Below are positions 2,386 to 52,124 of a stretch of 64,000 bases of DNA, piece by piece (the stretch's first letter is position 1; each line of letters begins with the position of its first letter). This DNA comes from an uncultured Nitrososphaerota archaeon (lineage in GTDB: Archaea; Thermoproteota; Nitrososphaeria; Nitrososphaerales; Nitrosopumilaceae). Position numbers and translations under genes: made by a program. A model generated the notes under the pieces. The model had not been told where the DNA came from, did no database searches, and worked only from the letters and a program-made list of their open reading frames with translations. The stretch covers positions 160,001 through 224,000 of the forward strand of contig OY969559.1 in NCBI GenBank assembly GCA_963701075.1, read 5' to 3'.

Positions 2386-2836
2386 CTATTTCTTTCTGGT
2401 ACGCCTAAGTCTAGTGAGCAGTTCTTTTGGCGATATAGTCTCAAGATGCCGATTGGCTTTCTTTAACTCTTTGTCGTGTGTTACAAGATATTGTGCGCCT
2501 TTTGCAAGTCCGGTAGCAATTATCATAGCATCAGGCAATCTAAGGCCTGTATTAGCACGGACTCTTGCTGCCGCATCAGTCTATCTCCATGTCAAGCTCG
2601 GCAATTACAAAACCCTTGGCAGAAATTAAATGTGCAAGCAGCTCTTCCTTACCACTCTTGTCTCCTTGAGAATAGTATCCCGTACATAATTCTGCAATAG
2701 AGATTACAGATATGACTGCTTGTATGAAGCCATCTTCAACTGCATTCAATACCTGCAAAGAGTATACAGAATGCGGCTCGCTGGCATTCTTGGCATTGAG
2801 TAAGATGTTGGTATCAAGTATTACAGTAATTACCAT
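2386..2836 (-). CDS. vapC: PIN-domain toxin (VapC), apparent +1 frameshift at 2578-2582 (likely sequencing error)
   Basis: ILDTN...SIAEL N-terminus; second frame continues AAARVRANTGLRLPDAMIIATG...LVTHD; removing one base gives 149 aa. Confidence 0.85.
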
Positions 2837-3063
2837 TCTTTACGCATTCTCTTTTGGAACTTGACACTGTGTTCTCTCCATGGTTTCTGTCTGCGTAAAA
2901 TCTCAGAGAGCTTCTCCCTTGAAGCTTTTTTCATTGTCGCCTGCCCGTCCTCAATAGCAAAAATTACTCTATCACCTTCCTTTAGATCAAGTGAAGTCCT
3001 AATCTCCTTTGGAATTGTTATCTGACCCTTGGTGGTAATTGAACCTACGCTCAGCTCTGACAT
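2830..3063 (-). CDS. AbrB/MazE/SpoVT-family antitoxin
   Basis: ITTKGQITIPKEIR..L.L.EGD motif; overlaps vapC start. Confidence 0.9.
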   Translation of the reverse strand: MSELSVGSITTKGQITIPKEIRTSLDLKEGDRVIFAIEDGQATMKKASREKLSEILRRQKPWREHSVKFQKRMRKEW

Positions 3064-3064
3064 T

Positions 3065-3084
3065 TCCTTACTCTATAGTAAGGA
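3065..3084. promoter_or_regulatory. Putative antitoxin operator palindrome
   Basis: TCCTTACT-ctat-AGTAAGGA immediately upstream of the antitoxin start. Confidence 0.55.
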
Positions 3085-3106
3085 TTTCCTTGCTATTAAG
3101 TATATG

Positions 3107-4672
3107 TCAGACAGGCAGTAGTATGTGAATCGCAGTTCCCTTTCCTATTCCTTCTGATTCTGCCCAGATCTTTCCGCCGTGTCCCTCAACTATTCCCTTG
3201 CATATTGACAGGCCAAGCCCTGAGCCCTTGTGTTCTCTTGTACTTGACGTATCTACCTGATAGAACCTTACAAAGATCTTGTCCAGCTTGTCTTTTTGAA
3301 TTCCCGTTCCGTTGTCCTTTACAACTATAGAGCAGAATTTCTCTTTTTTGTCAAGCGTTATGGTTATGCTGCCTTTCTCCTTTGGACAAAAATTCATTGC
3401 ATTAAGTACCAAGTTTGTAACAACCTGAGATATCCTGGTATTGTCACATGTACATGCGGTATCTTGCCTAAGAGATGTTGTTATCTCTATCTTGTTTTTG
3501 TCAGTTAGTGGCTTTATGCCAGATATTGCATTTGAGATAATCTCTGCAAGGTTGTGCGTATTTTTTTCCAGCTTTAGCTGCCCAATCTCAATTTTTTGTG
3601 CGTCAAGCAGATCAGATATCAGTTTTTGCATCGAGTCCGTACTTGTCTTTACTATCTCAAGCCTTTCATGTTGCATTGGAGTAAGCGGGCCGAACCTTTC
3701 TGCAAGTGTCAGGTCAACATAGCCCTGTATTGGCACAAGGGGCGTCTTTAGTTCATGTGTGACCATTGCTAAAAATTCATCCTTTGCAAGCTCTGCATTT
3801 TTTAGCTCGGTATACTGCTGGCTTAGCTTTTCTTGGTCCTCTTCTATCTTTTTTCTCGAGTAATAAATTTCAGTGATATCCCTTAATGCAACTGTTCTTC
3901 CAGTCAGTCTTCCTTTCTCATCGTAAATGTTGGTACCGCTGAGCAGCGTTGGAAATTCAGAGCCGCCCTTTCTTTTCATCCATATTTCCCTGTTCACTAT
4001 CTTGCCAGACTTTTTCCATTCTGCAATGGATTTTGTAAGCTCGTCGAAACTTTTCTCTGCAGTATGGTCTACTGCCCTTGTTTTTCCTATAATCTCCTCT
4101 TTTGTGTATCCAAGATTTTTTGCATATGCGTCATTGCAGTCAATTATTTTTTCATCAGATGTTATGGTACGCAGCATGTCAGGTGAGCTGTCATACAGGT
4201 TACGGTATTTTTTTTCCGTAAGTACAAGGGACTCGTGCGTCTTTTTTAGTTCTGCATACTGGTCTTTTAGCCTGACCTCGCCCTCTTCTGCCTTTTTTAG
4301 CGTATCATGAAGTTTTGATATGTCCTGAATTGCAACGATATATTCTGGTGGTTCTATTTTTCCAAGCCTTGCGCCGCTGCACATGCCGTAAAACTTTGTC
4401 TTGTCTTTTTTTATCAGCAGTATCTCAATTAGCGGGCCTGCCCCTGTCTTTTGCATCTGTGCAAACCCGTCAAGTGCGACCTTTTTGTAATCTTGTTCAA
4501 TAAAGTCAAAGCATGATTTTCCAACCAGCTCCTCTTTTGTGTATCCGATATAGTCAAGTGCACGCCGGTTGATGTCAGTTATTATTCCGTTATTGTCAAG
4601 CGTACACACTAGATTGGGGGATACCTCAAAGAAGAGCCTGAACCTGCTTTCGTCCTGGTTCTGGGAATCCAT
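3107..4672 (-). CDS. PAS-PAS sensor histidine kinase
   Basis: Two PAS domains, H-box THELKTPL, N-box NLVLNA, DNGTG and GSGLGL G-boxes; ATG at 4672 preferred over 4714. Confidence 0.92.
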   Translation of the reverse strand: MDSQNQDESRFRLFFEVSPNLVCTLDNNGIITDINRRALDYIGYTKEELVGKSCFDFIEQDYKKVALDGFAQMQKTGAGPLIEILLIKKDKTKFYGMCSGARLGKIEPPEYIVAIQDISKLHDTLKKAEEGEVRLKDQYAELKKTHESLVLTEKKYRNLYDSSPDMLRTITSDEKIIDCNDAYAKNLGYTKEEIIGKTRAVDHTAEKSFDELTKSIAEWKKSGKIVNREIWMKRKGGSEFPTLLSGTNIYDEKGRLTGRTVALRDITEIYYSRKKIEEDQEKLSQQYTELKNAELAKDEFLAMVTHELKTPLVPIQGYVDLTLAERFGPLTPMQHERLEIVKTSTDSMQKLISDLLDAQKIEIGQLKLEKNTHNLAEIISNAISGIKPLTDKNKIEITTSLRQDTACTCDNTRISQVVTNLVLNAMNFCPKEKGSITITLDKKEKFCSIVVKDNGTGIQKDKLDKIFVRFYQVDTSSTREHKGSGLGLSICKGIVEGHGGKIWAESEGIGKGTAIHILLPV

Positions 4673-4741
4673 GTTCTTATAACAGGTACCGTCCCCTTTT
4701 ATAACCCCAGCCACTGGTTGCCAAATTTTAGAAATTGTAAC

Positions 4742-4843
4742 TTAGATTGTCTCTTTGAAGCACGAGCATTTTTTTGACTTGTGTGTAATACATCCCACAA
4801 GCCTGTGGTCCTTGCAGCCGCAAATTATGCATTTTTTATCCAT
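4742..4843 (-). CDS. 33-aa Cys/His-rich microprotein
   Basis: Manual translation MDKKCIICGCKDHRLVGCITHKSKKCSCFKETI*; below ORF track cutoff. Confidence 0.5.
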   Translation of the reverse strand: MDKKCIICGCKDHRLVGCITHKSKKCSCFKETI

Positions 4844-5032
4844 TTGAGATGATCTTTGGCACCATGATATTAATTGGTTCTAGTCTTTGCAAAAAAAAGA
4901 GATTTTTTAAAAATCAAGGTAAAGAGCGGCGAAAGTTCTGGTATTTTTTTGCAGATGTAACAAAGTACAATCTAAATTGTATAGCAAGAATCTTCCATAG
5001 GTTTTAGTATATCACAAATATACCGCACCTCA

Positions 5033-5935
5033 ATGTCTGGTCAGGAATCTGTCGAGTGGCAAATAATAAACAAAGTTCAGGAGACTGTCAATACATACAC
5101 GTATACATTTTCAACTGGAAAAAAATATGAGCTTGGCATTGGCCAGTTTGTTACAATTGGTGCACATCTGAAAAGGCCCACTATATCTGGCGGAACAGAA
5201 GAGAGTTTTGTAGAGCGTGCATATTCTATTGCGTCATCACCTGACAGGGAGAAAGTCGAGCTGACAATAAAATGCGAAAAGCCCTACGGATACATCAATC
5301 CTGCACTAAAAAAGGCCGACGGTTTTGCCGCCTACTTTTTTGAGCAGGCAAAGATTGGCGACAAGGTAAAGGTAAAGTTTGGCTTGAAAAAAGACCATTT
5401 TCTCTCAAAAATAATCTCTGGAGCAGAAAAAGACATTGCATACTGGTCAGGCGAGAACGGGGCAGAATCTGCAAGAAGCCTGATACAGTACATGCAGGAC
5501 AGGCCGGACCTTGGAATCAAGCTTGTTCTCTTTTACAGTAACCCATACCTGTACCTTGATAAGAGTATCAACGTGATTTACTATAACTGGCTAATTGAGA
5601 TGGCAAAAAAGATGGAAAACTTTAGCGTTGTCTTTACATTTACAAGGGATTCTGAAATCCCTGTATCTGACCATCCGCGTGTGTTTTTCCGAAAGGGTAG
5701 GTTCTTTGTGGATTCTGCAGGAGAAGTGGAGAAGACTTTGTCAAAATATCATGGCACTCCAAAATCTGTGTTCAACCCAATTTGTGGAAGCAGTGGCTTT
5801 ATCATTGGCGTAAGCCAGGGACAAGACGGAAAACTTGTCAAGGGACGCGGCATCATGCACAACCTAATGGAAGTTGAAGGCATACCTGCAGAAAAGATTG
5901 ACAAGGAACAGTTCTATCTTGACCACGCACATTAA
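5033..5935 (+). CDS. FAD/NAD(P)-binding oxidoreductase, ferredoxin-NADP reductase-like
   Basis: GQFVT and RAYSIASSP FAD motifs, ICG motif, C-terminal EQFY. Confidence 0.8.
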   Translation: MSGQESVEWQIINKVQETVNTYTYTFSTGKKYELGIGQFVTIGAHLKRPTISGGTEESFVERAYSIASSPDREKVELTIKCEKPYGYINPALKKADGFAAYFFEQAKIGDKVKVKFGLKKDHFLSKIISGAEKDIAYWSGENGAESARSLIQYMQDRPDLGIKLVLFYSNPYLYLDKSINVIYYNWLIEMAKKMENFSVVFTFTRDSEIPVSDHPRVFFRKGRFFVDSAGEVEKTLSKYHGTPKSVFNPICGSSGFIIGVSQGQDGKLVKGRGIMHNLMEVEGIPAEKIDKEQFYLDHAH

Positions 5936-6001
5936 AAGGAAAACCTGACGTGAGATACTGGTGCAAGGAACTTAAATAAATAAACAAGTGGTTGTTATTA
6001 C

Positions 6002-6193
6002 ATGTCAGTTAAGATAAAAGACATCAAGACTCTGGCGATCAAAGAAGACGATGGTTCCTATTCCATAACATGTTCTGCATTAGGAGTTTATAGTACTGGA
6101 AAAAACATGGCAGAGGCCAGAAAAAACTTTGTCAAAGCCCTTGAGCTTCATCTGTCTGTTTTAAGAGAAAAGGCTACTGAAATAGCGGTTTGA
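6002..6193 (+). CDS. HicB-like antitoxin (orphan)
   Basis: EDDGSY...GVYSTG...EA..N...ALELHL pattern; no adjacent HicA. Confidence 0.7.
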   Translation: MSVKIKDIKTLAIKEDDGSYSITCSALGVYSTGKNMAEARKNFVKALELHLSVLREKATEIAV

Positions 6194-6216
6194 AAAGACT
6201 TGCATTTTGCATCAAA

Positions 6217-6471
6217 TCATTTGTAAACTTTTTTTCTGTGCTCAAATCTTAGCAGATATAGAACTGTTCCCTGATATGCATAGATGAGCCTGTAGGGTTT
6301 TACATAGACCGTCCTTTCACCTTTCAAGTCATATCTTAGCGGCTTTCCTAACTCAGGAGATTCTACTATGTTTTGTATCTGCTTTTGCAGTTTTTCTTTT
6401 AGTTTGCTATCTTTGATTTTTGTAACTTCTTTTTTGAACTTGTCAGACCATATTATTTGGGTAATTACCAT
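6217..6471 (-). CDS. RelE/ParE-family toxin
   Basis: GKPLRYDLKGER..YVKPYRLIY...FEHRKKVY; start at ATG 6471 overlapping the antitoxin stop. Confidence 0.85.
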   Translation of the reverse strand: MVITQIIWSDKFKKEVTKIKDSKLKEKLQKQIQNIVESPELGKPLRYDLKGERTVYVKPYRLIYAYQGTVLYLLRFEHRKKVYK

Positions 6472-6737
6472 TTGGCAAATTCCATAAAGAATTTGGATGT
6501 ATTGGCTTTTCCACCCTTGCCAGTTTCTATTTCCCGCCATGCCTCATGGATTGACTTGAGTGTTTTAATATCGTCCTGACTCAATTTTTGGTCTACCTTT
6601 TTTAGAACGATCAAACCTTTTTTTTCTGTTATGACAAATACGTTTCCATCCTTTATGTCAAGTTTTTTTCTTACCTTGTTTGGTATTACTATCTGTCCCC
6701 TGCTGCTAACTGTGGTGAACATGGTTTCATTTGACAT
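6465..6737 (-). CDS. AbrB/MazE/SpoVT-family antitoxin
   Basis: VSSRGQIVIPNKVRKKL.I.DG motif. Confidence 0.88.
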   Translation of the reverse strand: MSNETMFTTVSSRGQIVIPNKVRKKLDIKDGNVFVITEKKGLIVLKKVDQKLSQDDIKTLKSIHEAWREIETGKGGKANTSKFFMEFAKW

Positions 6738-6740
6738 GAT

Positions 6741-6755
6741 GTAAGATTATCTTAC
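6741..6755. promoter_or_regulatory. Putative antitoxin operator palindrome
   Basis: GTAAGAT-t-ATCTTAC 3 nt upstream of the antitoxin start. Confidence 0.55.
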
Positions 6756-6811
6756 TAAATATTAAATGTGTTTGCCGTAGACAGTAGATTTCTTGTACAA
6801 TCCCTTTAGGT

Positions 6812-7339
6812 CTAGTCCTTCAGATACCCCATATCTTCAAGCTTTTGGATCAAAGCATCAAGGGACTCTTGTGGCGTAGAGTTTTCAGTATCCAAAATTA
6901 TCTCCGGATTTGTTGGCTCTTCGTATGGCGATGATATTCCTGTCATGTTTTTTACCTCGCCTGCCTTGGCTTTCTGGTATAGTCCCTTTGGGTCTCTCTT
7001 GATGCATGTTTCCAGTGATGCCTTGATGTAGACCTCTACAAAGTTTGGGATCTCTTTTCTTGCAAGCTCTCGTGTCTCGCGGTATGGGGAGATTAATGGT
7101 ATGATTGTGGTAATATCGTTTTTTACCAACAGCTTGGCAATTTCTATTACCCGCCTGTTGTGCTCCTTTCTTCCCTGTTCGGTATAATCGCAGTCAGAAC
7201 TTAGCGTCTTTCTTAGCTCGTCTCCATCTAGTATCATTACCGGCATATTCTTTGATTTGAGATAGTTTTTGACTAGTCCTGCAATTGTGCTCTTGCCGGA
7301 GGCCGGAAGACCAGTAATCCACATAGCAGGAACTTCCAT
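6812..7339 (-). CDS. cysC: Adenylyl-sulfate (APS) kinase
   Basis: WITGLPASGKST P-loop, LDGD, RDPKGLY, TGISSPYEEP. Confidence 0.95.
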   Translation of the reverse strand: MEVPAMWITGLPASGKSTIAGLVKNYLKSKNMPVMILDGDELRKTLSSDCDYTEQGRKEHNRRVIEIAKLLVKNDITTIIPLISPYRETRELARKEIPNFVEVYIKASLETCIKRDPKGLYQKAKAGEVKNMTGISSPYEEPTNPEIILDTENSTPQESLDALIQKLEDMGYLKD

Positions 7340-7434
7340 TCAACAATGGGTTCTATTTTTTGCATATATGAATTACGTAACTTTGTTGACGAACTTTGTT
7401 CCCTATGCTCTGCCACGATATTTTTTATGATAAA

Positions 7435-8499
7435 TTAAAGTCTGATTTGTGATCTTTCACCAAGTAAGAACTGGTGCTTTTTTGGATGCGTGTGGTCCTC
7501 AATTTCTGATTCACGGGCTATGATGCTGTCTACTAGGTGCACTCTAGCATCAATCTTTGCGCCTTCCATTATGATTGAATTTTCAATGTCACATTTTTTT
7601 AAAGATACATTGTTTCCAACGCTGGCATAAGGTCCAAGCCTTACTGCAGGCCCTATGGTACAATTATCGCCAATTATTACAGGCCCTGTAACAAACGAGT
7701 CTCTGGATATGGTTGTGTTCTTTCCAATTACTAAATTTCCTCTAACTTCTGAGCCGCTTGATATTACAAACTGGTTCGGCGTTCCAATTGAATCCAGCAC
7801 CAATTGGTTTGCATGCAAGATATCTTCTGGCGTGCCCGTATCCTTCCACCAGCCTGTTACCGTATCATATTCTATTGTACCACCACTGTTCATCAAAAGG
7901 TCCAGCGCATCTGTAATCTCTAGCTCGCCCCGCCATGACGGCTTTAGCTTGTCTATTATACCAAATATCTTGGGGGTGAGAAAATAGATTCCAATTACTG
8001 CCAGGTTTGACTGAGGGTTTTTTGGCTTTTCCATTATCTTTTTTATTTTCTTTCCGTCAAGCTCTGCTATGCCAAACCTTGAAGGGTCGTCGACTTCGCA
8101 GAGAAGTATCATTGCCTCTGCACTGGATACTTTGAATTTTTTTGTATAGTCGACCAGTCCCTTTCGTAAAATGTTGTCGCCAAGATATACGACAAACCTG
8201 TCATTTCCGATAAAGTCTTTGCATAATCTGATTGCATGAGAGATGCCAGCAGGCTTGTCCTGGTAAATGTATGTAATTTTTACGCCAAATTTAGAACCGT
8301 CGCCGTAGAACTCTTTTACCTTTTCCGGATAGACATCTCCTATTATGATTCCAATCTCGGTGATTCCCGCCTCTCTGAAATCTTCGAGTGCATACTGTGA
8401 CATGGGCTTGTTTGCAATTGGTAAAAGTTGCTTAGGTCCTGTATGTGTGAGCGGTCTCAGTCTTGTCCCATGGCCGCCGTGAAGTATGATTCCTTTCAT
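7435..8499 (-). CDS. rfbA: Glucose-1-phosphate thymidylyltransferase, long form
   Basis: GGHGTRLRPLT..GPKQLLP, RGELEITD, C-terminal hexapeptide repeats. Confidence 0.93.
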   Translation of the reverse strand: MKGIILHGGHGTRLRPLTHTGPKQLLPIANKPMSQYALEDFREAGITEIGIIIGDVYPEKVKEFYGDGSKFGVKITYIYQDKPAGISHAIRLCKDFIGNDRFVVYLGDNILRKGLVDYTKKFKVSSAEAMILLCEVDDPSRFGIAELDGKKIKKIMEKPKNPQSNLAVIGIYFLTPKIFGIIDKLKPSWRGELEITDALDLLMNSGGTIEYDTVTGWWKDTGTPEDILHANQLVLDSIGTPNQFVISSGSEVRGNLVIGKNTTISRDSFVTGPVIIGDNCTIGPAVRLGPYASVGNNVSLKKCDIENSIIMEGAKIDARVHLVDSIIARESEIEDHTHPKKHQFLLGERSQIRL

Positions 8500-8581
8500 T
8501 TTGATCCGTGTTATGATATACAGCATATTTCAAGGTGCTGTCAAATTAGATTCATAAAAATAACTATCTGGTGAGATCAAC

Positions 8582-8605
8582 AGGTTCTGTCAACTTGATG
8601 GCTCA
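8582..8605 (+). mobile_element. Solo copy of the left terminal inverted repeat of the TnpB element
   Basis: AGGTTCTGTCAACTTGATGGCTCA identical to 10123-10146. Confidence 0.8.
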
Positions 8606-8634
8606 ATGGTTTGTAGTGACTTGGAGTTAACTAG

Positions 8635-8868
8635 TCATCCAAGAAGCCTTGAAAAATCTTCCACGCTCATTCCAGCATCATCTATTATTCTGCTCAACGT
8701 GCCTTTCTTCAACTCTTTATGCAAGGGAACAGTAAGCTTGATTATTTTATCAGCATGAACTTTTTCTAATCTCACATGACTGCCTTTCTGTCTTATGACC
8801 CTAAAACCAGCCTTACTGAGTGCCTTTATGACATCCTTGCCAGAAGTTATAGGTAGTTTGGTGCTCAA
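8635..8868 (-). CDS. hicA: HicA toxin
   Basis: GF..IRQKGSH...TVPLH.EL.KGTL..I motif. Confidence 0.92.
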   Translation of the reverse strand: MSTKLPITSGKDVIKALSKAGFRVIRQKGSHVRLEKVHADKIIKLTVPLHKELKKGTLSRIIDDAGMSVEDFSRLLG

Positions 8869-9056
8869 ATAGCAACCTCAACAATCTCCTTTCCTTCTGC
8901 TTTCTCAGTATATTCTAGATAAAGCTCTATGGCTTCTCGTATGTTGTGAAGTGTTTCTTCTTTTGTTTCACCTTCACTTATACATCCCGGAAGTGATGGT
9001 ACGTATGCAGTATAACCTCCCTCTTCTTGTGACTCGAGAACTACCTTGATCTTCAA
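8865..9056 (-). CDS. hicB: HicB antitoxin
   Basis: EEGGY.AYVPSLPGCISEGET.EE...NIREAIELYLE. Confidence 0.92.
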   Translation of the reverse strand: MKIKVVLESQEEGGYTAYVPSLPGCISEGETKEETLHNIREAIELYLEYTEKAEGKEIVEVAI

Positions 9057-9145
9057 CTGTTATAATTTTGTCTAGGTGATAAATATTGGTTCTGTTTGAT
9101 ATGTCTTATTGCCCTCAACTGGCAAAGTTACTTGAAATCTGGTCT

Positions 9146-10021
9146 CTACTTTATCTCTTCTATAAACAGATCAAGGCCTTTTTCTATAGTCATTGGCTTT
9201 TCCTTGAGAAGCGATGCTGCTTTTGATATATCAAGTGACGAATCTTTTGGCCTCTTGGCAGTCCAGTTCATGTCTGCCATATTGGTTGGCCTCAATAGTT
9301 TTTTGTCAAGGCCTAGCTTGTCTGCAACCATCTCTGCCATGTCGTATCTTGAGATTCGTGTTGCCCCCGATACGTGAAGTATTCCCTGAATCTTTCTAGA
9401 AGATATCTCAATTAACATTCTTGACAGATTTGGCACATATGTTGGAGATGTGTACTGGTCAGTTATGATATCAAGTGGGGTTTTTGCCCTGAGATTTTCT
9501 GCAATAAATATTGGAAAACTCTTCTTCTTTGGATGTATTCCGTATGGCGTGCTAGTTCTTGCTATACACCACTTTGTTGCAATCTCTTTTACTGCACTCT
9601 CGCCTTCTAGCTTTGATCTTCCATAATGATCAATTGGCTCGGTATTGTCGGATTCTTTTTTCATCCCATTTTCTCCGTCAAAGACGTAATCTGTTGATAC
9701 GTATACAAGAAATGCCCCTAGCTTTGTTGCCTGCTCAGCTATGATTGCAGTTGACTTGGAATTAATCTTTGTAGCAAGATCTTTTTGTGTCTCGCACAGG
9801 TCAACATTTGTCATTGCAGCCAGATGAATTATCACATCGGGCTTGGTTGACTCTACAACCTTGATGATAGCGTCTTGGCTTGTCAGGTCAAGCTGCGTTG
9901 CAATTCCATCTTCTGGCTTTGAATTATTGTAACAGGAATAGACGTGTGTGTATGATTGTAGAAGGTCCTTTACGACCTGCCTTCCTACAAGACCTGCTGA
10001 ACCTGTTACTAGAAATTTCAT
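9146..10021 (-). CDS. rfbD: dTDP-4-dehydrorhamnose reductase
   Basis: TGSAGLVG, STDYVFDG, YGRSK, DQYTSPT, RP.DSSL motifs. Confidence 0.93.
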   Translation of the reverse strand: MKFLVTGSAGLVGRQVVKDLLQSYTHVYSCYNNSKPEDGIATQLDLTSQDAIIKVVESTKPDVIIHLAAMTNVDLCETQKDLATKINSKSTAIIAEQATKLGAFLVYVSTDYVFDGENGMKKESDNTEPIDHYGRSKLEGESAVKEIATKWCIARTSTPYGIHPKKKSFPIFIAENLRAKTPLDIITDQYTSPTYVPNLSRMLIEISSRKIQGILHVSGATRISRYDMAEMVADKLGLDKKLLRPTNMADMNWTAKRPKDSSLDISKAASLLKEKPMTIEKGLDLFIEEIK

Positions 10022-10123
10022 CTTCGATTCACTCCATACCATAATCAAAAAACATGTTTTATTTCTTGTCTACGAGTTGTTTTGATGTGTTATTTCTTGT
10101 GTTTTGTTTGAATGCTAATCTTA

Positions 10124-11403
10124 GGTTCTGTCAACTTGATGGCTCATGGCAGGCATTGTAAACTTCTTGAGATATATCACAATTACCTGCTCTTTTAAGA
10201 AGATCAAAGATATCAAAAGCCTACCGTGTTATCAGTCAAATGTGTAACACAGAACCATCGCTGTGCCGAGATTGTACCAGTGATGAAGGATTTCAGGTCT
10301 GTTGTAAACGATGCAATAAAGCTGGGTATCGAACATAACATTACTTCGAGATTTAAACTACGAAGCCTGGTCTATCCAAGGTTTAACAAGATGATGTATT
10401 CTGGATATGTCTATACCGCAATTTGGAAGGCTTGTGCCATGCTCAAAAACTATCGCAGAACAAAAAAGAAGAATGCTCATGCCAGGATACCTGTCATGAA
10501 AAGTCACATCCTTGTAATTGATAACCAGAGATACGAGATAATCCACAACCATCTCAAGTTTCCAGTCAGGCCTAGGCAGTTTGTATACATTCCTCTCAAT
10601 CACTACGTTTGTAAAATTTTACTGCAACCAGGTCTGAAACTTGGTGAGGTTACATTAACTGAAGAAAAACTCTTCATATCTTATACAAAAGTGATATCCA
10701 AAAAGGAGCCAAAGGGATACATTGGAATTGACATGAACCTTGAGAACGCAACTGGCACAGATGAAAGCGGCACCACTACAATAGTAGACACATCTGATAT
10801 TGTATCAATGAAAGCAAAATACAGAGATGTACTGTCGCACTTTACAAGAAATGATGCCAAGATACAAAAGAGACTCAAACAAAAATATGGCAAGAAACAA
10901 AAAAACAAAGAAGATACATTCCTGCACCAGAAATCAAAGGAGATTGTATCACAAGGCAGGCAGGTCATAATGGAGAATCTCACCGGAATAAGAAGATTGT
11001 ACAGAAAAGGAAATGGTCAGGGAAAAAGGTTTAGGTTCAGACTAAACTCGTGGTCAAGATTCAAGTTGCAAAAGATGATAGAGTACAAGTCAGTTGATTG
11101 TAACGGCCTTGAAGTGATTTACATAAAACCAAATGGGACTTCATCGAGGTGTGCGACATGTGGGTCAAAACTAGTACCCGAAGAGCACCGAATGATGAGA
11201 TGTCCCTCCTGTCGTGTTACCACAGACAGGGACAAAAATGCCAGCAAGAATATTCTGGCTAGAGGCTTGGCAATGCTGGAACAGAAAGAACCAGCACGGT
11301 TCGAGCCTGACGCAGTGCAAGGTGAAGCGATGAAGCAGTTCAAAGATGTGGAGCAGATTGCACCGAGTCTACTTGTTGGACGAGCCATCAAGTTGACAGA
11401 ACC
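10124..11403 (+). mobile_element. Non-autonomous TIR-bounded element carrying only tnpB
   Basis: Perfect 25-bp inverted repeat 10121-10145 / 11382-11406; flanking direct repeat TAATCTT(A/G) at 10116-10123 and 11404-11411; exact ends ambiguous by 1 nt. Confidence 0.85.
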
Positions 11404-11416
11404 TAATCTTGTGTGA
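10226..11416 (+). CDS. tnpB: TnpB RNA-guided endonuclease (IS200/IS605 OrfB family)
   Basis: RuvC-I GIDMN, RuvC-II IMENL, zinc finger CATC..CPSC, RuvC-III DRDKNAS. Confidence 0.93.
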   Translation: MLSVKCVTQNHRCAEIVPVMKDFRSVVNDAIKLGIEHNITSRFKLRSLVYPRFNKMMYSGYVYTAIWKACAMLKNYRRTKKKNAHARIPVMKSHILVIDNQRYEIIHNHLKFPVRPRQFVYIPLNHYVCKILLQPGLKLGEVTLTEEKLFISYTKVISKKEPKGYIGIDMNLENATGTDESGTTTIVDTSDIVSMKAKYRDVLSHFTRNDAKIQKRLKQKYGKKQKNKEDTFLHQKSKEIVSQGRQVIMENLTGIRRLYRKGNGQGKRFRFRLNSWSRFKLQKMIEYKSVDCNGLEVIYIKPNGTSSRCATCGSKLVPEEHRMMRCPSCRVTTDRDKNASKNILARGLAMLEQKEPARFEPDAVQGEAMKQFKDVEQIAPSLLVGRAIKLTEPNLV

Positions 11417-11713
11417 CTCGTCAGCAATCTTTTGCGAGATGTAATCAACATTTTTTCGCATGCCCTGAACTACTGGACTGTCCATATTAATCGAGTAAAG
11501 CTTGGCGTTTGCGATCTTCCGGTTTACCCTAATCATTCCAAATTCAACGAGATTGTCAAAGTACTTGTAAAACGTAGTCTTGCTCATGCCTAGTGCCTCA
11601 ATTATCTCCTTTTGCATAAAGTCATTTTTTGGAAAGTCCATAAGATAAGACAGGATCTTCATCTGGGGCGAGCTGCCATAGGCCCTAAGAAGAAGGGGAG
11701 ATGATTCCGACAT
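11369..11713 (-). CDS. Winged-HTH protein; native C-terminus displaced by the TnpB element
   Basis: wHTH pattern (EIIEALGMSKTTFYKYF..LVEFG); native tail ISIQTKHKK* lies at 10090-10119. Confidence 0.75.
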   Translation of the reverse strand: MSESSPLLLRAYGSSPQMKILSYLMDFPKNDFMQKEIIEALGMSKTTFYKYFDNLVEFGMIRVNRKIANAKLYSINMDSPVVQGMRKNVDYISQKIADESHKIRFCQLDGSSNK

Positions 11714-11777
11714 GGTTTTATCTTCCTCTAAAAAGTATTTAAATCATAACTTTAGAAGGTATCATAAGTGTACCTAG

Positions 11778-12059
11778 TTGAAGGCTACGTTTACTGATGA
11801 CCAGCTACGCGCCCAGATCCTATACTATCTATGGAACCAGGGAAGCTGGTCTGAAATCTATACAAATATTGACAAGATGGTAAGAAGATTGGGAAATGTT
11901 GTAAAGAACAACGGAAAGAATACAATGAAAAAGGTGGAAGACCTTGTCAAATGGAACTGGGTTTTACCGCGCAAAAATTGGGATACGGTTTCATTGAATC
12001 CAATATTCAAGTCTCAAATTAGCCAGTACATAGGGTTACACTTGATTGGACAATCATAA
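11778..12059 (+). CDS. Hypothetical protein, divergent partner of the wHTH gene
   Basis: 93-aa ORF with W..I.T...VSLNP pattern. Confidence 0.6.
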   Translation: MKATFTDDQLRAQILYYLWNQGSWSEIYTNIDKMVRRLGNVVKNNGKNTMKKVEDLVKWNWVLPRKNWDTVSLNPIFKSQISQYIGLHLIGQS

Positions 12060-12072
12060 TGTCGTTTTTTGG

Positions 12073-12117
12073 TTGCCTTCCGACAAGTCCTGCAGAGCCT
12101 GTTACAAGAAATTTCAT
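12073..12117 (-). pseudogene. Displaced rfbD 5' fragment (copy 2)
   Basis: Encodes MKFLVTGSAGLVGRQ, identical in protein to the rfbD start, with synonymous differences. Confidence 0.9.
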
Positions 12118-12161
12118 ATTTGATTACCTGCCTTACCATTTAGAACCAGCGTATTGTATAC

Positions 12162-12485
12162 CTACAGTTTGATAGCCGCATCCCATCTCTTCTTTGCGGT
12201 CGGGCTTGCGTAAATCCATACTATCGAACCATCTTTGTCAAGCAATACCTTATTTGACTTTTCAAGATAACGCAAAATAACATTAAGAACTGGTGGCCTC
12301 ATGGTGACATCTAACTTCTTTACCAATTGTGCTTTAGAGTCAAACTCTTTGTACTCTGCAAGAAGCTGTTCGACTTTTAGAATATTTTTTAACGTAGGGT
12401 TATACTTTTGAATGCTTTTGTGCATGTCGTCTCTTGATTCCAAACCTGGATTGTGTTTTGCTACAAATACTGTCTTTGGTTTCAT
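12162..12485 (-). CDS. Putative wHTH-like antitoxin
   Basis: PTL..IL.VE...ILRYLEKSNKV...IVWI pattern; downstream of a RelE-like gene. Confidence 0.6.
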   Translation of the reverse strand: MKPKTVFVAKHNPGLESRDDMHKSIQKYNPTLKNILKVEQLLAEYKEFDSKAQLVKKLDVTMRPPVLNVILRYLEKSNKVLLDKDGSIVWIYASPTAKKRWDAAIKL

Positions 12486-12536
12486 GGTATACAATGCATT
12501 GCATACTTCTTGTATATATGTACGTACATTTATGTA

Positions 12537-12857
12537 TCAATAGCCAAATCTCTTATTGTATTTTTCATGATCGAATAATTCCATTAAAAGGGCTTTTTTC
12601 TCATTGTGTATTGCAGTTATACCATAAATCAAACGCCAATGGCCGGGCAGGTCTACCTTGAAGACGGCATTAACATCGTGTCTTTTGAGATAGTGTTTTG
12701 GAATCTGTTCTCGTTTTAGGCGAACCCCGACTATTTTATCACTTTTCAAATTACTAATGATCTCTTTTACAACCTTGTACAACGCATCATCTTTGTCAAG
12801 TGCATCATAGACAGGCATAAAGTCATCAGGATCTCCTCCTACTTCCATTCCCATCAC
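12537..12857 (-). CDS. Putative RelE-like toxin
   Basis: IPKHY...VFKVDLPGHWRLIY...ELFDHEKYNKRFGY. Confidence 0.65.
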   Translation of the reverse strand: MMGMEVGGDPDDFMPVYDALDKDDALYKVVKEIISNLKSDKIVGVRLKREQIPKHYLKRHDVNAVFKVDLPGHWRLIYGITAIHNEKKALLMELFDHEKYNKRFGY

Positions 12858-12872
12858 ATAACTTGACAGAGA

Positions 12873-12968
12873 TTAAAACTTGATACTCAGCTGTTTAGAT
12901 CTTGTTTTGAGGTCTTGTATGACCTGCCTTCCGACAAGTCCCGCAGAGCCTGTTACAAGAAATTTCAT
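12873..12968 (-). pseudogene. Displaced rfbD 5' fragment (copy 3)
   Basis: Encodes MKFLVTGSAGLVGRQVIQDL then diverges to a stop after 31 aa; 45/46 nt identical to copy 2. Confidence 0.9.
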
Positions 12969-13026
12969 ATATCATTTACACCAAAGGACTTGTTTTTAAA
13001 ATCAGATCATATACTTGCAACTTTTT

Positions 13027-13483
13027 TTACCTGAATATCTCATCTTTGTTCTTTATTATAGTATGTTCCTCTTTTTCTATGCTGTTAACAAGTTGCCTTG
13101 CCTCATTTCTTGTGACTACATCATCCTTGATTGCAAGCCTCAATATCCTTGGTAGCGAAAAATAATTCATGTTATCTCCCTTGCACAATCTATGCACTAT
13201 CTTTTCATTGCTTGCAAGTGGAATATTTCGGTTCTTTGCTATAACATAGCATTCTTTTTCTCCCTTGTCAAGCTTCACTGTATGCATACTTTAGATCCTT
13301 TAACTCACCGGTTGTTAATTGAACAAACTCAGGACCAAGCTTCTTGATCTCTATTTTTCCTTCCGCAAGTTCAACCTTTACTGATGGTGGTACAATAATA
13401 GCTTCAAAAAGTTTGTTTAATATATCAAGCCTCCCAATTCTTGCAAAAATGCTCAGCATGTCTGTATCGACAACAATCTTCAT
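13027..13483 (-). CDS. PIN-domain toxin (DUF3368-like), apparent +1 frameshift near 13271-13275
   Basis: IVVDTDMLS N-terminus and LDKGE.EC...ASNE C-half in different frames; one-base removal gives 151 aa. Confidence 0.8.
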
Positions 13484-13486
13484 TCA

Positions 13487-13807
13487 TTACCTGCTCTTGA
13501 TCTTTTCAATCACACTGTCCATCTTTGACGCGCTTTCTGCTTCTATTACCCTCTTGATGCCGTACTCTTTTAGTTTCTCCTTGAATTCTATTATGCCAAC
13601 ATCTGCAATCTCGGCTGCCTTGCCAAGGGTGACCTCTCCCTTTTTGTATAGTCCCACTGCAGCTGCAAGTCTTAGGTTCTTTTTATTGCTGAACATGTAT
13701 CTGAGGGCGTCCTTGACAACATCGGACTTGCTTGAATAATACCCTGATTTGACCAGCTCGTCTATTTCCTTCTTGACTATTTCTGGCAGGTTGTAGCTTG
13801 AAGGCAT
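13487..13807 (-). CDS. Ribbon-helix-helix + UPF0175-type antitoxin
   Basis: LVKSGYYSSKSDVVKDALR and LYKKGEVTLGKAAEIA motifs. Confidence 0.8.
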   Translation of the reverse strand: MPSSYNLPEIVKKEIDELVKSGYYSSKSDVVKDALRYMFSNKKNLRLAAAVGLYKKGEVTLGKAAEIADVGIIEFKEKLKEYGIKRVIEAESASKMDSVIEKIKSR

Positions 13808-13913
13808 ACAATGTATTGATAACTATTATCATAAATAACTATCGGTTCTTGTGATCCGGCTTGCGTCATCTGGATCTGCCTATATAACCCTCCCAGGAGT
13901 TAGCGTTCTCTTT

Positions 13914-14912
13914 TTACCAGTTTACAGTCCAGGGTTGGGGATGAAGTGTCTTTTCATCTGCAAGTGGCTCCCACCAAGACTTGTTGTTTTGATACCATGA
14001 TACGGTTTCCTGCAATGCTTGGTCAAACTGGTATCTAGGCTTCCATCCCGTTGCCTTCATTATTTTCGATGCATCAATGGAATACCTCTTGTCGTGTCCC
14101 GGCCTGTCGCCTACGTTTTCTATGATATCAAGTGGTTTTTTCATCTGGTTGAGTATTTTTTCAACTATGATTCTGTTTGTAATCTCGTTCCATGCTGTGA
14201 TGTTATAGACCTCGCCTGACTTGCCCTTTTCTATTAGCTCGTCAATTGCCTGTACATGGTCAAGAACATAGATCCAGCTTCTGATCTGGTTTCCTGAACC
14301 ATAGAGTGGAACTTTGAGGTTCTTGGAAGCTCGAATTATTGTCTTTGGGATTAGCTTCTCTGGAAATTGATTAGGTCCAAAGTTGTTGGTGCATCTTGTA
14401 GTGATGCATTTTATGCCGTATGTCCTATGGTAAGATTCCACTAGGAGATCAGCTGATGCCTTTGTGGCTGAATAGGGATTGCTTGGCTTGAGGATATCGT
14501 GCTCTGTAAATGATTCCTTGTTCTCTGCATCGCCGTAAATCTCGTCAGTTGATACATGTATGAACAGCTTGTCGTGTCTTCTTGCTGCCTCTAGGATGGA
14601 ATATGTTCCCAAGACATTTGTCTCTATGAATGGTTTTGGGTTTGATATGGAACGGTCAACGTGGGTCTCTGCTGCAAAGTTTACTATCACATCTGATTCC
14701 TTTGCAAGTTTGTTTATGTTATCTTGCGATCTGATGTCGTCTTTGATGAAAGAATAATTTGGATTCTTTTCTACCTCTTTTAGGTTTTCTAAATTGGAAC
14801 CAATTGTCAGGCTGTCAAGATTTACTATGGTATCTTTTGGATTATTTTTAAGGTGGTTTCTGATATGCGCACTTCCAATAAAGCCTGCCCCGCCACAAAC
14901 TAGAAGTTTCAC
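13914..14912 (-). CDS. rfbB: dTDP-glucose 4,6-dehydratase
   Basis: GGAGFIGS, AAETHVDRSI, STDE.YG, PYSATK, DRPGHD.RY. Confidence 0.95.
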   Translation of the reverse strand: MKLLVCGGAGFIGSAHIRNHLKNNPKDTIVNLDSLTIGSNLENLKEVEKNPNYSFIKDDIRSQDNINKLAKESDVIVNFAAETHVDRSISNPKPFIETNVLGTYSILEAARRHDKLFIHVSTDEIYGDAENKESFTEHDILKPSNPYSATKASADLLVESYHRTYGIKCITTRCTNNFGPNQFPEKLIPKTIIRASKNLKVPLYGSGNQIRSWIYVLDHVQAIDELIEKGKSGEVYNITAWNEITNRIIVEKILNQMKKPLDIIENVGDRPGHDKRYSIDASKIMKATGWKPRYQFDQALQETVSWYQNNKSWWEPLADEKTLHPQPWTVNW

Positions 14913-15002
14913 ATCTTGGAGAATCCAATCTTATTATTTATTCTAATCTGGCGTTTTATCGGTATACGAAGTTGTTGCCTGTGTTTTTCAAGCTAGTTTG
15001 TA

Positions 15003-16411
15003 TTATTTTTCACTTGATTTTTTCATTTTATCAACGATATCATCATACTTCCTAAGTAATCTCCAAGTAAAACTTTGATGTATATCATCTAACGAGGATT
15101 GCAAGCTGGTGATTTGTAGATCTTTATCTGCAATAGCTTTGTTATAGTTCTCTAACGAGGATTGCAAGCTGGTGATTTGTAGATCTTTATCGGTAATAGC
15201 TTTGTTATAGTTCTCTAACGAGGATTGCAAGCTGGTGATTTGTAGATCTTTATCGGTAATAGACTTTGTTATAGTTCTCTAACGAGGATTGCAAGACTGG
15301 TGATTTGCAGATCTTTATCGGTAATAGCTTTGTTATAGTTCTCTAACGAGGATTGCAGACTGGTGATTTGCAGATCTTTATCGGTAATAGCTTTGTTATA
15401 GTTCTCTAACGAGGATTGCAAGCTGGTGATTTGCAGATAAAGATCTGCAATAGCTTTGTTATAATACATAAGTAGCCTCAGTAAACGTTCTAATGAGTCG
15501 TTTTGTGTGAATTGAATTACCTTTGTCGATAAAAACTCAGATTGCTCTGTGGAATTTGATAGATAGTATTTCTTAACATCATAACCTAATTTTATCATCA
15601 ATTCACCAGTTATCTTGATGATTTCTGAAATCTCCTCCTTTGAGAGGTATTCAGAATATTGATTTAGTGAAGATGTATGAATTGGTAATCTTGGATCAGT
15701 TTTTCCAATTGCGAGTCCCGTTTCATCTAATTCCGGATGAAGAAGTTTTTCATGTTTTAGAACCGCATCTTCCCAAGATACATCCAAGAAATTCAAAATG
15801 GTAGATATGGTAGGAATGGGTTTTGTAACGAGATTCTCGTAAAACACCAGAATTATCTGAGATGTCTTATTTGCATAATTGTAATATGATGATGTTTTTA
15901 TTTTCCAATATATTGCTCCTGCCACAGTTGCCTTAAATTTCGTGTTTTCAAGCAATCGAATCTCTTCGCGATAGATATTATCAAAGTCTGGAATAGTTTT
16001 TCTCCAAAAGTCGATAGTGCTTTCAGCCCATATTTCTAACCAAGATTTACTTCCCTGATCCAATTTTTTCATAGAAGCAATAGTATCCAGTGGATTTCTG
16101 ACCAAGAAGATCATAGGAATATTACTATAATGGTTCACCATTCCCAGAAAATCTGCTCCAGCATCTGCAATAAATGGTTCTAAGAATTGTTCTGTGATTC
16201 TGGGAGTTTTAAACCCCAACCACTTTTTTGCTTGATTAATCTTTAATTCTTTATTCAATAATTCAGTTTCTCTAAGAATAGAATAAGATCTTAATTCATC
16301 AACACATGAAATCATTGAGTGACTTTCCAAAACTAGTCGCATTAATGTAGTGCCACTTCTCTGACAGCCAATAATGAAAAATATTTTGGGAAGATTTTTT
16401 TCTATCAACAT
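15003..16411 (-). CDS. Sulfotransferase with C-terminal tandem-repeat coiled coil (two apparent +1 frameshifts)
   Basis: GCQRSGTT and RNP.D.IAS PAPS-binding motifs; removing inserted bases at ~15263 and ~15296 gives one 468-aa ORF. Confidence 0.85.
15088..15462 (-). repeat. 63-bp coding tandem repeat, about 6 copies (SSLENYNKAITDKDLQITSLQ)
   Basis: Units start at 15088, 15151, 15214, 15278, 15342, 15405. Confidence 0.95.
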
Positions 16412-28305: not shown

Positions 28306-28385
28306 TGTTATGAATGCGAAGATTATGGTTTTATCCTTTGTTTTTTACGTAAATTGAGTGTTGTTGCATTGTAGGGTTTCAAAAA

Positions 28386-36152: not shown

Positions 36153-36162
36153 CATGGAAATT
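36112..36162 (+). repeat. 51-bp direct repeat, copy 1
   Basis: Identical to 37579-37629. Confidence 0.95.
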
Positions 36163-36253
36163 TACCATACATGGATTTTTCAAGAAAATACAATCTAGTG
36201 AGGTTTTTGTATATCTTGATGATATTCAATATGAAAGAAATGATTGGGATAAT
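36162..36253 (+). pseudogene. WbqC-family N-terminal relic
   Basis: KKIQSSEVFVYLDDIQYERNDWDN resembles IIKNSDVFVFLDNVKFEKRSWQMRN of the intact gene at 53381. Confidence 0.6.
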
Positions 36254-36314
36254 GTACTTCTTACGCAGTATTAAACTGAATTATCAAATTTTGATTATTT
36301 TGTGAATCGGCAAC

Positions 36315-37578: not shown

Positions 37579-37629
37579 CAGAAAAATGGAGAAAAATAAT
37601 CAGGGACCTAGTCCAATAGCATGGAAATT
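37579..37629 (+). repeat. 51-bp direct repeat, copy 2
   Basis: Identical to 36112-36162; overlaps the ugd stop. Confidence 0.95.
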
Positions 37630-48725: not shown

Positions 48726-49047
48726 GGTACGGACCCCTCTAGAATAAGATCATCTCATTACATACACTTTTTGAACATTATTGGAGGAATCATACATGGT
48801 AAGAAGCAAATTCATGCCCCAGAAAAAGGCAAGAATAATCTTGGAGTCATTGAACACAAACATCAGTGCTGCAGAGCTGTGCCGCAAGCAAAATATCAGC
48901 CCGCCGACATTTTACCAGTGGAAAGAAAAATTCGTAGAAGGTACAGTACACTGTCAGAATTCTACCGTTTGTGGGAGATGAGAAATAAATGAGAGTAATT
49001 GTATGTAAAATCATGCCAAAAGCGTTCTCCAAGACAGGGTCCACTCC
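48726..49047 (+). mobile_element. Internally deleted IS3-family-like element, copy 1
   Basis: Ends GGTACGGACCCC / GGGTCCACTCC, flanked by GAT/GAT; orfA HTH (ELCRK..IS..TFYQWK) fused to an orfB-like tail. Confidence 0.75.
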
Positions 49048-49193
49048 GATCATTATTATAAAATTTAAATTTTGAATCTGTAAAACAGTAGTTATTGAAC
49101 TGCACATTACATCCATGTCATGTCTGATAATGTGAAAAAACTTTTTATCTAGGGGTTAGTAAAATTGGGATTACTAGGAAAACATAGCAGAAT

Positions 49194-49992
49194 ATGACTC
49201 AATTAAACTCTGATTTAATAAAAATGCATTTAGAAGAAATTAATCTTAAGGGCTATAGCATTATTGAAAATGTTATTACTTCAGATGAATGTAAAAAAAT
49301 TTCAGATAAACTTGATGCGTTTGAAGAAGATCAGCAAAAGGAATTTGGTCTTGAGCGTCTAAAAAAATTAACCGAAATTGGAATTATAAGAACTCTAATA
49401 GAAAAAGATGAATATTTCATGAATATTATTCTCAACCGAACCGTTTTGTCCATAATGAATACAATATTGGGTGATAAACGTATTTTACATCTTCAGAATG
49501 GTCTAGTCCTAGAACCACAGCTTGCACAAAATCAAATAGCTCGCTATCATAGAGATATGCCATTTTCAAATTATGCTGGAAATCCTATAGCAGTAAATGC
49601 CTTTTGGATGATTGATGATTTTACAAAAGAGAATGGTGCAACGTGGATATTGCCATATAGTCATAAGATGTTGGAAATTCCCAGTACTCAATTTATAGAA
49701 AAGCATAGCATACAAGCAGAAACCAAAAAAGGATCAGTAATGATTTTTGATAGTAGGTTACTTCACAAAGTCTGGATTTAACAATACAAAGAATAGAAGA
49801 AGAGCTATAAATCACTTGTACACAAAATCTTTTGTAAAACAACAGCTTGATTTTCCTAAAATAATGGCTGGAAAATATGATTTAGAAAGTGAGATGAGCC
49901 AGATTTTGGGATTCTGGTCAGTTCCTCCAAAATCTATTCATGAGTTTAGAAGTGATCCAGAGAAAAGAACATACCGAAGTGGTCAACAATAG
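49194..49992 (+). CDS. Phytanoyl-CoA dioxygenase (PhyH) family, apparent +1 frameshift at 49769-49773
   Basis: YHRD, DDFTKENGAT...SH, LH(K)AG.N...RRA; one-base removal gives 265 aa. Confidence 0.85.
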
Positions 49993-50161
49993 TAAATATT
50001 GGAATGTCATTAAATTTGATTTTAATCTATCTTTGTGATTATAAAACCTCTCTCAATAACTAATTGTTAACTTGCTTCTTATAATTTTCATATAGTGTGA
50101 TTTAAACAAGATAATACAATTTTTATACTAATCAAGTCTTAGATAAATATCCCTCAGATAA

Positions 50162-50257
50162 ATTCTTAAGGAATTAATCTATGGTTAGCTTAAGACCATC
50201 TCTGAACGTAATTACAGATTCAAATCCTAATTTTTCATTGGCGTTCGTTATTGACAG
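50162..50257 (-). pseudogene. 3' relic of an NAD-dependent epimerase/dehydratase
   Basis: LSITNANEKLGFESVITFRDGLKLTID*FLKN matches the typical LG..P...F.EGL..TI.W tail. Confidence 0.55.
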
Positions 50258-50386
50258 CTTGTGTATTACAGTGAGATTTTTTGATAATACCTAATGATTA
50301 TTTGTAGATTTGAAGGTATTATTATTGTATTGTGATGCCTACAGCAATCTATAAGACTATCTAGAACTTCACTTAAGAAGATTAAT

Positions 50387-51331
50387 GTGCTGTATAGTTA
50401 TATTGGTAATAAGAGAATTTCCAAAATCACCTTGGGAACGGTCCAGATTGGAGTTAGGTATGGAATTGCTAACAAATCTGGAAAACCAAACTTTCAATCT
50501 GCACAAAATATTTTGCAGTCATCTGTTCTTATGGGAATAAATGCTTTTGATACTGCCGCCACTTACGGTAATAGTGAAGAAATTATTGGATCTTTTCTTA
50601 AAAAAATATCATTAGAAGAATATCCAATAATAATTACCAAGATTCCAAAAATTCAAGCTAAAAACGTCTCATTTGAAAATATCTATCAGCAGGTAAAATC
50701 ATCAGTGGTTAGTTCTGCTACAAGACTAAATTTGGACCAGATTCCAATTTGTTTGCTTCATGAAGCTGGTGATATGATATCTTATGATGGATTAGTTACT
50801 AAGAGTCTAGTAAAGCTTAAAGAAGAAGGATTTGTCAAAATGATTGGAGCGTCAATATATAGCCCTACAGAAGCAAAAAAATTTCTTGAGATAGATGAAT
50901 TTGAAGTAATACAGATTCCAATTAACATATTTGATACTCGTTTATTAAAACAAGGAATCCTTGATGAATTTAATCAAAGAAAAACTATTGTTTTTGCACG
51001 TAGCATTTTTCTTCAAGGACTTATTTTTCTCAAACTTGAAAAGCTGCCTTCTTTCCTTGCATCTGCAAGAATTCCTCTTGAACAATTTTATGATCTTTCA
51101 TCCGATTTGGGTATGAATCCTGCACAACTCGCGTTAACCTTTGTAAGAGACACACCGGGAATTACAAGCATGGTGCTAGGAGTTGAGACTGTAAATCAGT
51201 TAAATGAGAATGTTAAATTAATAGATTCGCCACATCTGTCTGACGGTGTGAGGTGTAAGATAATAGATATGTTTTGTGATACTCCTGAGGAAATAGTTAA
51301 TCCAAGTAAATGGAACATAAAGGAAGAATAG
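50387..51331 (+). CDS. Aldo/keto reductase
   Basis: LGTVQ.G..YG, DTA..YG.SE, ARS.FLQG. Confidence 0.88.
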   Translation: MLYSYIGNKRISKITLGTVQIGVRYGIANKSGKPNFQSAQNILQSSVLMGINAFDTAATYGNSEEIIGSFLKKISLEEYPIIITKIPKIQAKNVSFENIYQQVKSSVVSSATRLNLDQIPICLLHEAGDMISYDGLVTKSLVKLKEEGFVKMIGASIYSPTEAKKFLEIDEFEVIQIPINIFDTRLLKQGILDEFNQRKTIVFARSIFLQGLIFLKLEKLPSFLASARIPLEQFYDLSSDLGMNPAQLALTFVRDTPGITSMVLGVETVNQLNENVKLIDSPHLSDGVRCKIIDMFCDTPEEIVNPSKWNIKEE

Positions 51332-51333
51332 AA

Positions 51334-52124
51334 TTGAATGTTAAAGATCTCTTTAATTTAAAAAATAATGTTTCCGTTGTGACTGGTGGTGCTGGTCACT
51401 TGGGCCTTGCTCTCTCAGAAGCTTTACTGAAGCAGGTTCTGATGTTTACATTGTTAGTAGGAATGAAGAAAAATGTAAAAAAGCAGCAAAATCTATACAA
51501 AAATGTACTGGAGCAAATGTAAAAGGATTATCAGTAGACATTTCTTCCATGATATCAATCATAAAATGTTTCAATGAAATAGTAAAGAAATCAGGAAGAA
51601 TAGATGTACTTGTAAATAATGCTGCATTTGCTCCACTTAAAAAATTTGAGAAAATGTCTGATGAAGATTGGATTAGAGGAATAGATGGAACCATAAATGG
51701 TGTGTACAGGACAACAAAAGCAGCAATACCAATCATGGAAAAAAACAAGGGTGGTTCTATCATTAATATTTCATCGATGTATGGAACTGTCTCACCTGAT
51801 CCATCAATTTATGGAAATTCTGGATTCGATAATCCTCCAAATTATGGTGCAGGAAAAGCAGCTATTGTTCAATTTACCCGCTATTTGGCATGTCATATGG
51901 CAAAAAAAGGAATACGAGCAAATGCTGTTTCACCTGGACCATTTCCAAATCTAAAGGTACAAAAGAATAAAACATTCATTTCTAACTTGGAAAAAAAAAC
52001 TCCCTTGGGTAGAATCGGCTTACCTTATGAACTCAAAGGAATAACTGTGTTCTTAGCATCAAAGGCATCAAGTTATGTCACTGGACAAAACATACATGTA
52101 GATGGTGGATGGACTGCATGGTAA
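51334..52124 (+). CDS. SDR oxidoreductase, apparent -1 frameshift at 51426/51427
   Basis: TGGAGHLG, NNA, YGAGK, PLGR.G, VDGG; adding one base gives 263 aa. Confidence 0.88.

Follow-up and report, generated by a model that had tools for sequence, protein, structure and literature searches.

Methylation of the tetramer AGCT has been described in several thaumarchaeal genomes, and short methylated motifs are a known source of error in nanopore consensus sequences. Both bear on a 64-kb window – the whole stretch of DNA analysed here, from contig OY969559.1 of an uncultured Nitrososphaerota archaeon – in which six single-base insertions or deletions (indels) disrupt five otherwise intact genes: vapC, a PIN/DUF3368 gene, a sulfotransferase gene, a PhyH dioxygenase gene and an SDR gene. 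Five of these six frame-breaking indels lie inside AGCT. We consider it probable that all five genes are intact and that their breaks are consensus errors of the assembly at modified AGCT sites rather than the marks of pseudogenes; the sequencing platform, the methylation of this particular genome and the enzyme behind it are what we infer from the pattern.

In a review, AGCT-specific N4-methylcytosine (m4C) methyltransferases are tabulated for Nitrosomarinus catalina SPOT01, Nitrosoarchaeum BD3 and Thaumarchaeota MY3 (PMC11033074; this paper and the others cited here are drawn on as excerpts). These enzymes – M.Nca01I, M.NspBD3I and M.TarMY3I – share their target tetramer with the affected sites of the window and their archaeal group with its organism. 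In BD3, m4C was found at 5974 of 6224 AGCT sites (96%), the enzyme is listed outside any restriction–modification system, and the authors regard the motif as probably conserved in the group (PMC6329791), while AGCT was 82–91% modified in both Thaumarchaeota metagenome-assembled genomes (MAGs) of a marine survey (PMC8919816). An initial annotation of the window had stated that AGCT cytosine methylation occurs in thaumarchaeal methylomes; for the group this is right, with m4C as the type of modification. In the excerpts of two further papers (PMC12477608, PMC11649196) there is nothing on AGCT.

The second assumption of that annotation, that base methylation gives rise to motif-specific nanopore errors, also has a published basis: such errors cluster in methylation motifs missing from the training data, and Dcm motifs held about 70% of them (PMC6591954). 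In the Dcm case the methylated motif was untrained in the base caller, and the errors survived to the consensus and were removed only in part by polishing. The window is alike in that its breaks are concentrated in one short motif. It differs in the motif itself and in the modification – 5-methylcytosine at CCWGG there, presumed m4C at AGCT here, with the platform likewise presumed – and in consisting of single-base indels. With newer chemistry, residual errors tied to modification persist and are difficult to correct within repeats (PMC11610603). With this R10.4.1 case the window shares the residual character of the errors, an assembly clean at homopolymers and the particular difficulty of repeats; the errors described there are substitutions, whereas those visible in the window add a T or lose a G, substitution errors in the window being invisible without a reference.

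The window (G+C 35.0%) covers a glycan-biosynthesis island with many toxin–antitoxin pairs, as judged by Pfam matches of 85 open reading frames (ORFs), and the closest named proteins and loci come from Nitrosotalea. Three Nitrosotalea-group loci (L001–L003) were available for comparison, one of them the Candidatus Nitrosotalea sp. TS draft (L003), which is syntenic with 515–14925 of the window at a nucleotide identity of 75–86%. AGCT occurs 179 times in the window and is not avoided (observed/expected 1.13); AGTCT or AGACT occurs 97 times.

Frame breaks in the vapC, PhyH and SDR genes

The altered sites, together with the repeat array and the intact site needed to judge them, are as follows.

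2578–2582, plus strand: AGTCT in the vapC (PIN-domain) gene (2386–2836, minus strand); T2580 is the extra base
13270–13275, no strand assigned: AAGCTT with one extra base in the PIN/DUF3368 gene (13027–13483, minus strand); the coding strand truly reads GAGCTT or GAACTT
15088–15463, minus strand: 63-nucleotide (nt) tandem repeat in the sulfotransferase gene (15003–16411), at its 3' end, coding for a 21-residue coiled-coil unit; 12 AGCT positions, 3 of them altered
15261–15265, plus strand: AGACT where sibling copies read AGCT; +1 insertion, the first frame break of the array in plus-strand coordinates
15294–15298, plus strand: AGACT where sibling copies read AGCT; +1 insertion that shifts the frame
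15357–15361, plus strand: AGACT in place of AAGCT; length unchanged, synonymous on both codons
49538–49541, plus strand: intact AGCT in the PhyH gene; GCT codon (Ala116), the sole residue differing from the intact protein P0121 (Thr)
49769–49773, plus strand: AGTCT in the PhyH dioxygenase gene (49194–49992); T49771 is the extra base
51424–51431, plus strand: TTACTGAA in the SDR gene (51334–52124); TTA-GCT-GAA lacks the G of its GCT after 51426

The altered strings had been quoted correctly in the initial annotation, and its contention that single-base fixes restore full ORFs holds in all five genes. The clearest comparisons are with intact copies of the same proteins found elsewhere. For the SDR, a 263-residue protein that NCBI names as coming from a Nitrosotalea sp. 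MAG (P0001) reads SEAL-A-EAGS at the break, where the window retains just the CT of a GCT codon; because P0001 has alanine at this point, the missing base is the G of TTA-GCT-GAA, and AGCT has been read as ACT at 51426, the single deletion of the set. With G added, 262 of 263 residues match, the sole mismatch being the TTG start translated as Leu. For PhyH, an intact protein of 265 residues encoded on a 1,475,060-nt contig (P0121) reads LLHK-A-GFNN, an alanine obtained only by deleting T49771, and 264 of the 265 residues then match. The remaining difference, where the window has Ala116 and P0121 has Thr, itself falls within AGCT, so either of the two assemblies may be in error there; it would fit the G-to-A error type described for current chemistry (PMC11610603).

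Across SDR, PhyH and the PIN protein discussed below (679 residues), PhyH residue 116 is the sole other difference from the intact copies. P0001, P0121 and the PIN copy P0127 come from other public assemblies of Nitrosotalea and otherwise agree with the window translation throughout, before and after each break. The three genes thus show no further decay, and that they are intact is well supported.

The case for vapC is made through homologues. Its N-terminal piece matches positions 1–75 of the 120 of the PIN profile (Pfam), and the stop codons of both frames confine the frameshift to 2576–2583. In an alignment of 22 representatives of at least 130 residues, drawn from 41 matches, the column at the break holds Ala in 18, Gly in two, Val in one and Ser in one; the closest of the 22 (P0141, 74% identical) reads EI-A-DAAA. 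Deleting T2580, and only that, yields GCT, and with it both AGCT and a single ORF of 149 residues. The vapC of L003, which has Ser (TCT) at the break, had been considered as an arbiter between Ala and Thr and was not decisive; the 22 representatives settled the matter in favour of Ala.

These comparisons also bear on the idea of programmed frameshifting, or some other recoding, at sites containing AGCT, which has nothing in its favour apart from the recurrence of one motif. A frameshift of this kind would be expected as a conserved shift at a slippery site, and what is found instead is orthologues in one frame (P0001, P0121, P0127 and the vapC of L003), which rules the idea out. Both +1 and −1 changes are present, moreover, and two of the shifts fall inside a single repeat, the remaining copies of which keep the frame. 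We give recoding virtually no chance of being correct.

The PIN/DUF3368 gene

The PIN/DUF3368 gene is the least clear of the five as regards the motif, though not as regards the protein. The intact protein (P0127, 151 residues) is seen on seven contigs and reads YSE-LDKGE at the break, and for the broken form (P0126) the contig of the window itself (1,915,938 nt) is the only one. A match of 151 out of 151 residues is obtained by deleting either C13273 or one T at 13274/13275, and since the two fit P0127 equally, either candidate may be the extra base. The first alternative, GAACTT on the coding strand, contains no AGCT and implies a spurious G; the second, GAGCTT, would make the surplus base a neighbour of a true AGCT. 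A scan with P0127 located the corresponding site in the three Nitrosotalea-group loci, which were tried as arbiters and brought no decision, as they disagree with one another: L001 and L002 have GAGCTA and L003 has GAACTT. The earlier claim that all frameshifts fall at AGCT is accordingly borne out for five of the six indels, while the PIN break may have no true AGCT.

Close by, at 13487, where the stop of the antitoxin gene meets the start of the PIN gene, the window is one base longer than L001, L002 and L003, so that TAA-TGA-ATG replaces an overlapping ATGA arrangement; this site lies outside AGCT and breaks no gene.

The sulfotransferase repeat array

The array at the end of the sulfotransferase gene consists of 5.9 copies of its 63-nt unit, and nine of its AGCT positions are intact. 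When both extra bases (15261 and 15294) are deleted, a single sulfotransferase ORF of 468 residues results. The third alteration, at 15357, changes AGC TTG to AGT CTG on the coding strand and, being synonymous on both codons, could be real. The initial annotation had listed this length-neutral swap along with the frameshift sites; the AGACT is indeed there in place of AAGCT, and both an artefact and a genuine synonymous variant would explain it.

Altered AGCT sites make up three of 12 in the tandem repeat versus three of about 172 elsewhere, and this higher share in the repeat fits weak consensus calling in repeats rather than a mutational process. The proposal that all five genes are intact has support of different kinds: SDR (262 of 263 residues), PhyH (264 of 265) and PIN (151 of 151) have their own intact copies, whereas the evidence comes from homologues in the case of vapC and from sibling copies within the array in that of the sulfotransferase.

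Concentration of the breaks at AGCT

Four of the altered sites (2578, 15261, 15294 and 49769) share the signature AG[T]CT, that is, a T inserted into AGCT as read on one strand, and in all four the insertion is positioned exactly between the G and the C. Under uniform placement, the joint probability that all five resolved sites fall at AGCT is about 9e-12, or about 2e-9 after multiplication by the 256 possible tetramers. AGCT is the sole tetramer common to all five, the runner-up (GCTG) being present in three. Chance placement at AGCT is excluded. Such a concentration in one motif, with five of six indels inside it, is what characterises consensus errors at methylation motifs.

Further frameshifts were sought in several ways. 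No other domain was found split across adjacent frames in a Pfam search of 85 main ORFs and 94 small gap ORFs (beyond 15 kb, among Pfam-matching ORFs). In alignments to L001–L003, whose syntenic cover is confined to 515–14925 with none beyond 15 kb, the only breaks of window ORFs were those at 2580 and 13273; the remaining single-nucleotide indels are intergenic or affect genes whose window copies are intact. Scanned with the aldo-keto reductase whose gene separates PhyH and SDR, the genome contigs yielded no relative. None of the 86 homopolymers of at least 7 nt in the window, 77 of them within genes, coincides with a break.

Several candidates were set aside in the course of this search. Single-nucleotide differences from L003 at about 4218, 5000, 5407, 14502, 14793 and 14892 were rejected as window errors, as the genes concerned are intact in the window; L001 agrees with the window where it overlaps, so these indels belong to L003. 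The draft L003 has its own single-nucleotide indels opposite about 4218, 13121, 14502, 14793 and 14892 of the window, its PIN gene included, and none of them is at AGCT. Other gene pieces proved to be truncated remnants rather than single-base breaks:

28138–28344: DUF4214 piece, remnant (Pfam)
36098–36271: remnant of a WbqC N-terminus (Pfam)
60145–60519: weak Polysacc_synt_C match, remnant (Pfam)

When the intact WbqC of the window was used as a tblastn query, no further WbqC pieces came up.

A motif-bound pattern could also arise from real and very recent mutation directed at AGCT, for example through an AluI-like cut followed by repair that adds or removes one base, in which event the affected genes would be true pseudogenes. 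AluI cuts between the G and the C of AGCT (AG^CT), and this is exactly where the four insertions lie; the affected genes are, furthermore, all dispensable. Set against this, the protein sequences flanking the SDR, PhyH and PIN breaks are identical to their intact copies with no further decay, the intact PIN form predominates over the single broken one, the same base has been inserted four times over, AGCT is not depleted in the window, and the AGCT methyltransferase of BD3 stands outside any restriction–modification system (PMC6329791). We regard targeted mutation as distinctly improbable. Its more specific form, in which the cell's own AGCT machinery would repeatedly add or remove one base, whether by cutting and faulty rejoining or through a faulty methyltransferase reaction, is more improbable still; were it true, AGCT-directed indels would switch off accessory genes of the island, and an archaeon would then possess a mutational mechanism guided by a motif.

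True pseudogenes of genomic islands offer a related comparison. The likeness is that toxin–antitoxin and glycan-modifying genes are broken in a variable island; the difference is that the lesions here are single, accompanied by no other decay, tied to one motif and matched by identical intact copies elsewhere. Neither further decay nor the same lesion in relatives was found: there is one lesion per break, and L001–L003 are without these indels.

Probable consensus errors at modified AGCT

If the breaks are consensus errors, as we think probable, they could have arisen as follows. The organism would be a Nitrosotalea-like ammonia-oxidising archaeon that most likely N4-methylates the cytosine of AGCT on both strands, as its relatives do, by means of a methyltransferase without a partner nuclease. 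Native DNA read on a long-read, signal-based platform (most likely nanopore) would give an altered signal at AGCT, at which the base caller would add a T before the modified C, turning AGCT into AGTCT, or lose the G. A small percentage of sites, larger within a tandem repeat, would carry the error through to the consensus. The one hint of such a platform is the length of the contig to which the window belongs, 1,915,938 nt.

Several observations weigh against this account. With current chemistry, modification errors are mainly C-to-T and G-to-A substitutions, and indel counts resemble those of assemblies polished with short reads (PMC11610603). In our literature search, the excerpts seen held no report of indels at N4-methylcytosine or at AGCT, and the search found no report of a Nitrosotalea methylome. 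The window itself, in its 85 + 94 ORFs, holds no DNA-methyltransferase domain above the Pfam threshold – a sub-threshold N6_Mtase match (16.2 bits, cut-off 20.4) falls on a MazE-type antitoxin ORF at 6468–6746 – and AGCT N4-cytosine methyltransferase genes, although known in relatives, are thus neither among the window ORFs nor, in the excerpts consulted, reported for Nitrosotalea. Only about six of 184 AGCT sites (about 3%) are affected, no extended flanking motif surrounds them, and sibling copies of the repeat, with the same 63-nt context, are free of the error. The PIN site may truly be GAACTT, as in L003, and thus not an AGCT at all. Finally, the broken genes are all accessory, as real pseudogenes would be, but so is the whole window.

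Some of the same points would favour an artefact at AGCT that involves no base modification, namely a bias of the base caller, the assembler or the polisher towards this sequence context: the small share of sites affected, the correct reading of identical contexts in neighbouring repeat copies, and the preponderance of substitutions among published methylation errors (PMC11610603). However, AGCT exactly matches the conserved m4C motif of related genera (PMC11033074, PMC8919816, PMC6329791), and the excerpts of PMC6591954 and PMC11610603 report no bias at unmodified AGCT. A bias of context alone seems unlikely to us, if less so than any of the mutational or recoding explanations.

The breaks are most likely a sequencing artefact and a warning about quality, not new biology, both the error mechanism and the AGCT motif of the group being already known. 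If the window, with its 2.9 or so AGCT sites per kb and about 3% of them affected, is representative of the genome, this assembly of 1.9 Mb would contain roughly 150–200 false frameshifts, and the practical consequences would be false pseudogenes, split proteins in databases and an overestimate of gene decay. On sequence evidence alone, the pattern also hints that the AGCT modification of marine and freshwater relatives reaches the acid-soil genus Nitrosotalea. Neither point is of a new kind; the observation is of use for checking the quality of assemblies and because it yields an inexpensive, testable prediction for the methylome of Nitrosotalea.

Other features of the island

The first part of the window (2386–13807) is dense in toxin–antitoxin-like pairs, comprising MazE/PIN, MazE/ParE, HicB/HicA, ParE-like and UPF0175/PIN-DUF3368 combinations, and a TnpB-like gene (10226–11416) lies within this run. 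Among the glycan genes are those for an APS kinase and two sulfotransferases (6812–7339, 15003–16411 and 17446–18744), which together suggest a sulfated surface glycan.

Two kinds of repeat accompany the genes further along. A protein of 884 residues combines DUF4214 repeats with two methyltransferase domains, and its gene contains internal 419-nt repeats that are 92% identical (24775–25193 and 26206–26624). An exact 51-nt direct repeat (36112–36162 and 37579–37629) flanks the WbqC N-terminal remnant, several small ORFs of unassigned function and a NUDIX gene.

The genes for PhyH, the aldo-keto reductase and SDR are bracketed by the arms of an inverted repeat of 313 nt (48727–49039 and 52276–52588; 97% complementary and identical over about 286 nt). 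Being identical over that stretch, which includes one AGCT, the arms yield no internal estimate of error. Each arm encodes a 68-residue HTH_Tnp_1 transposase fragment, and the whole resembles a small composite mobile unit.

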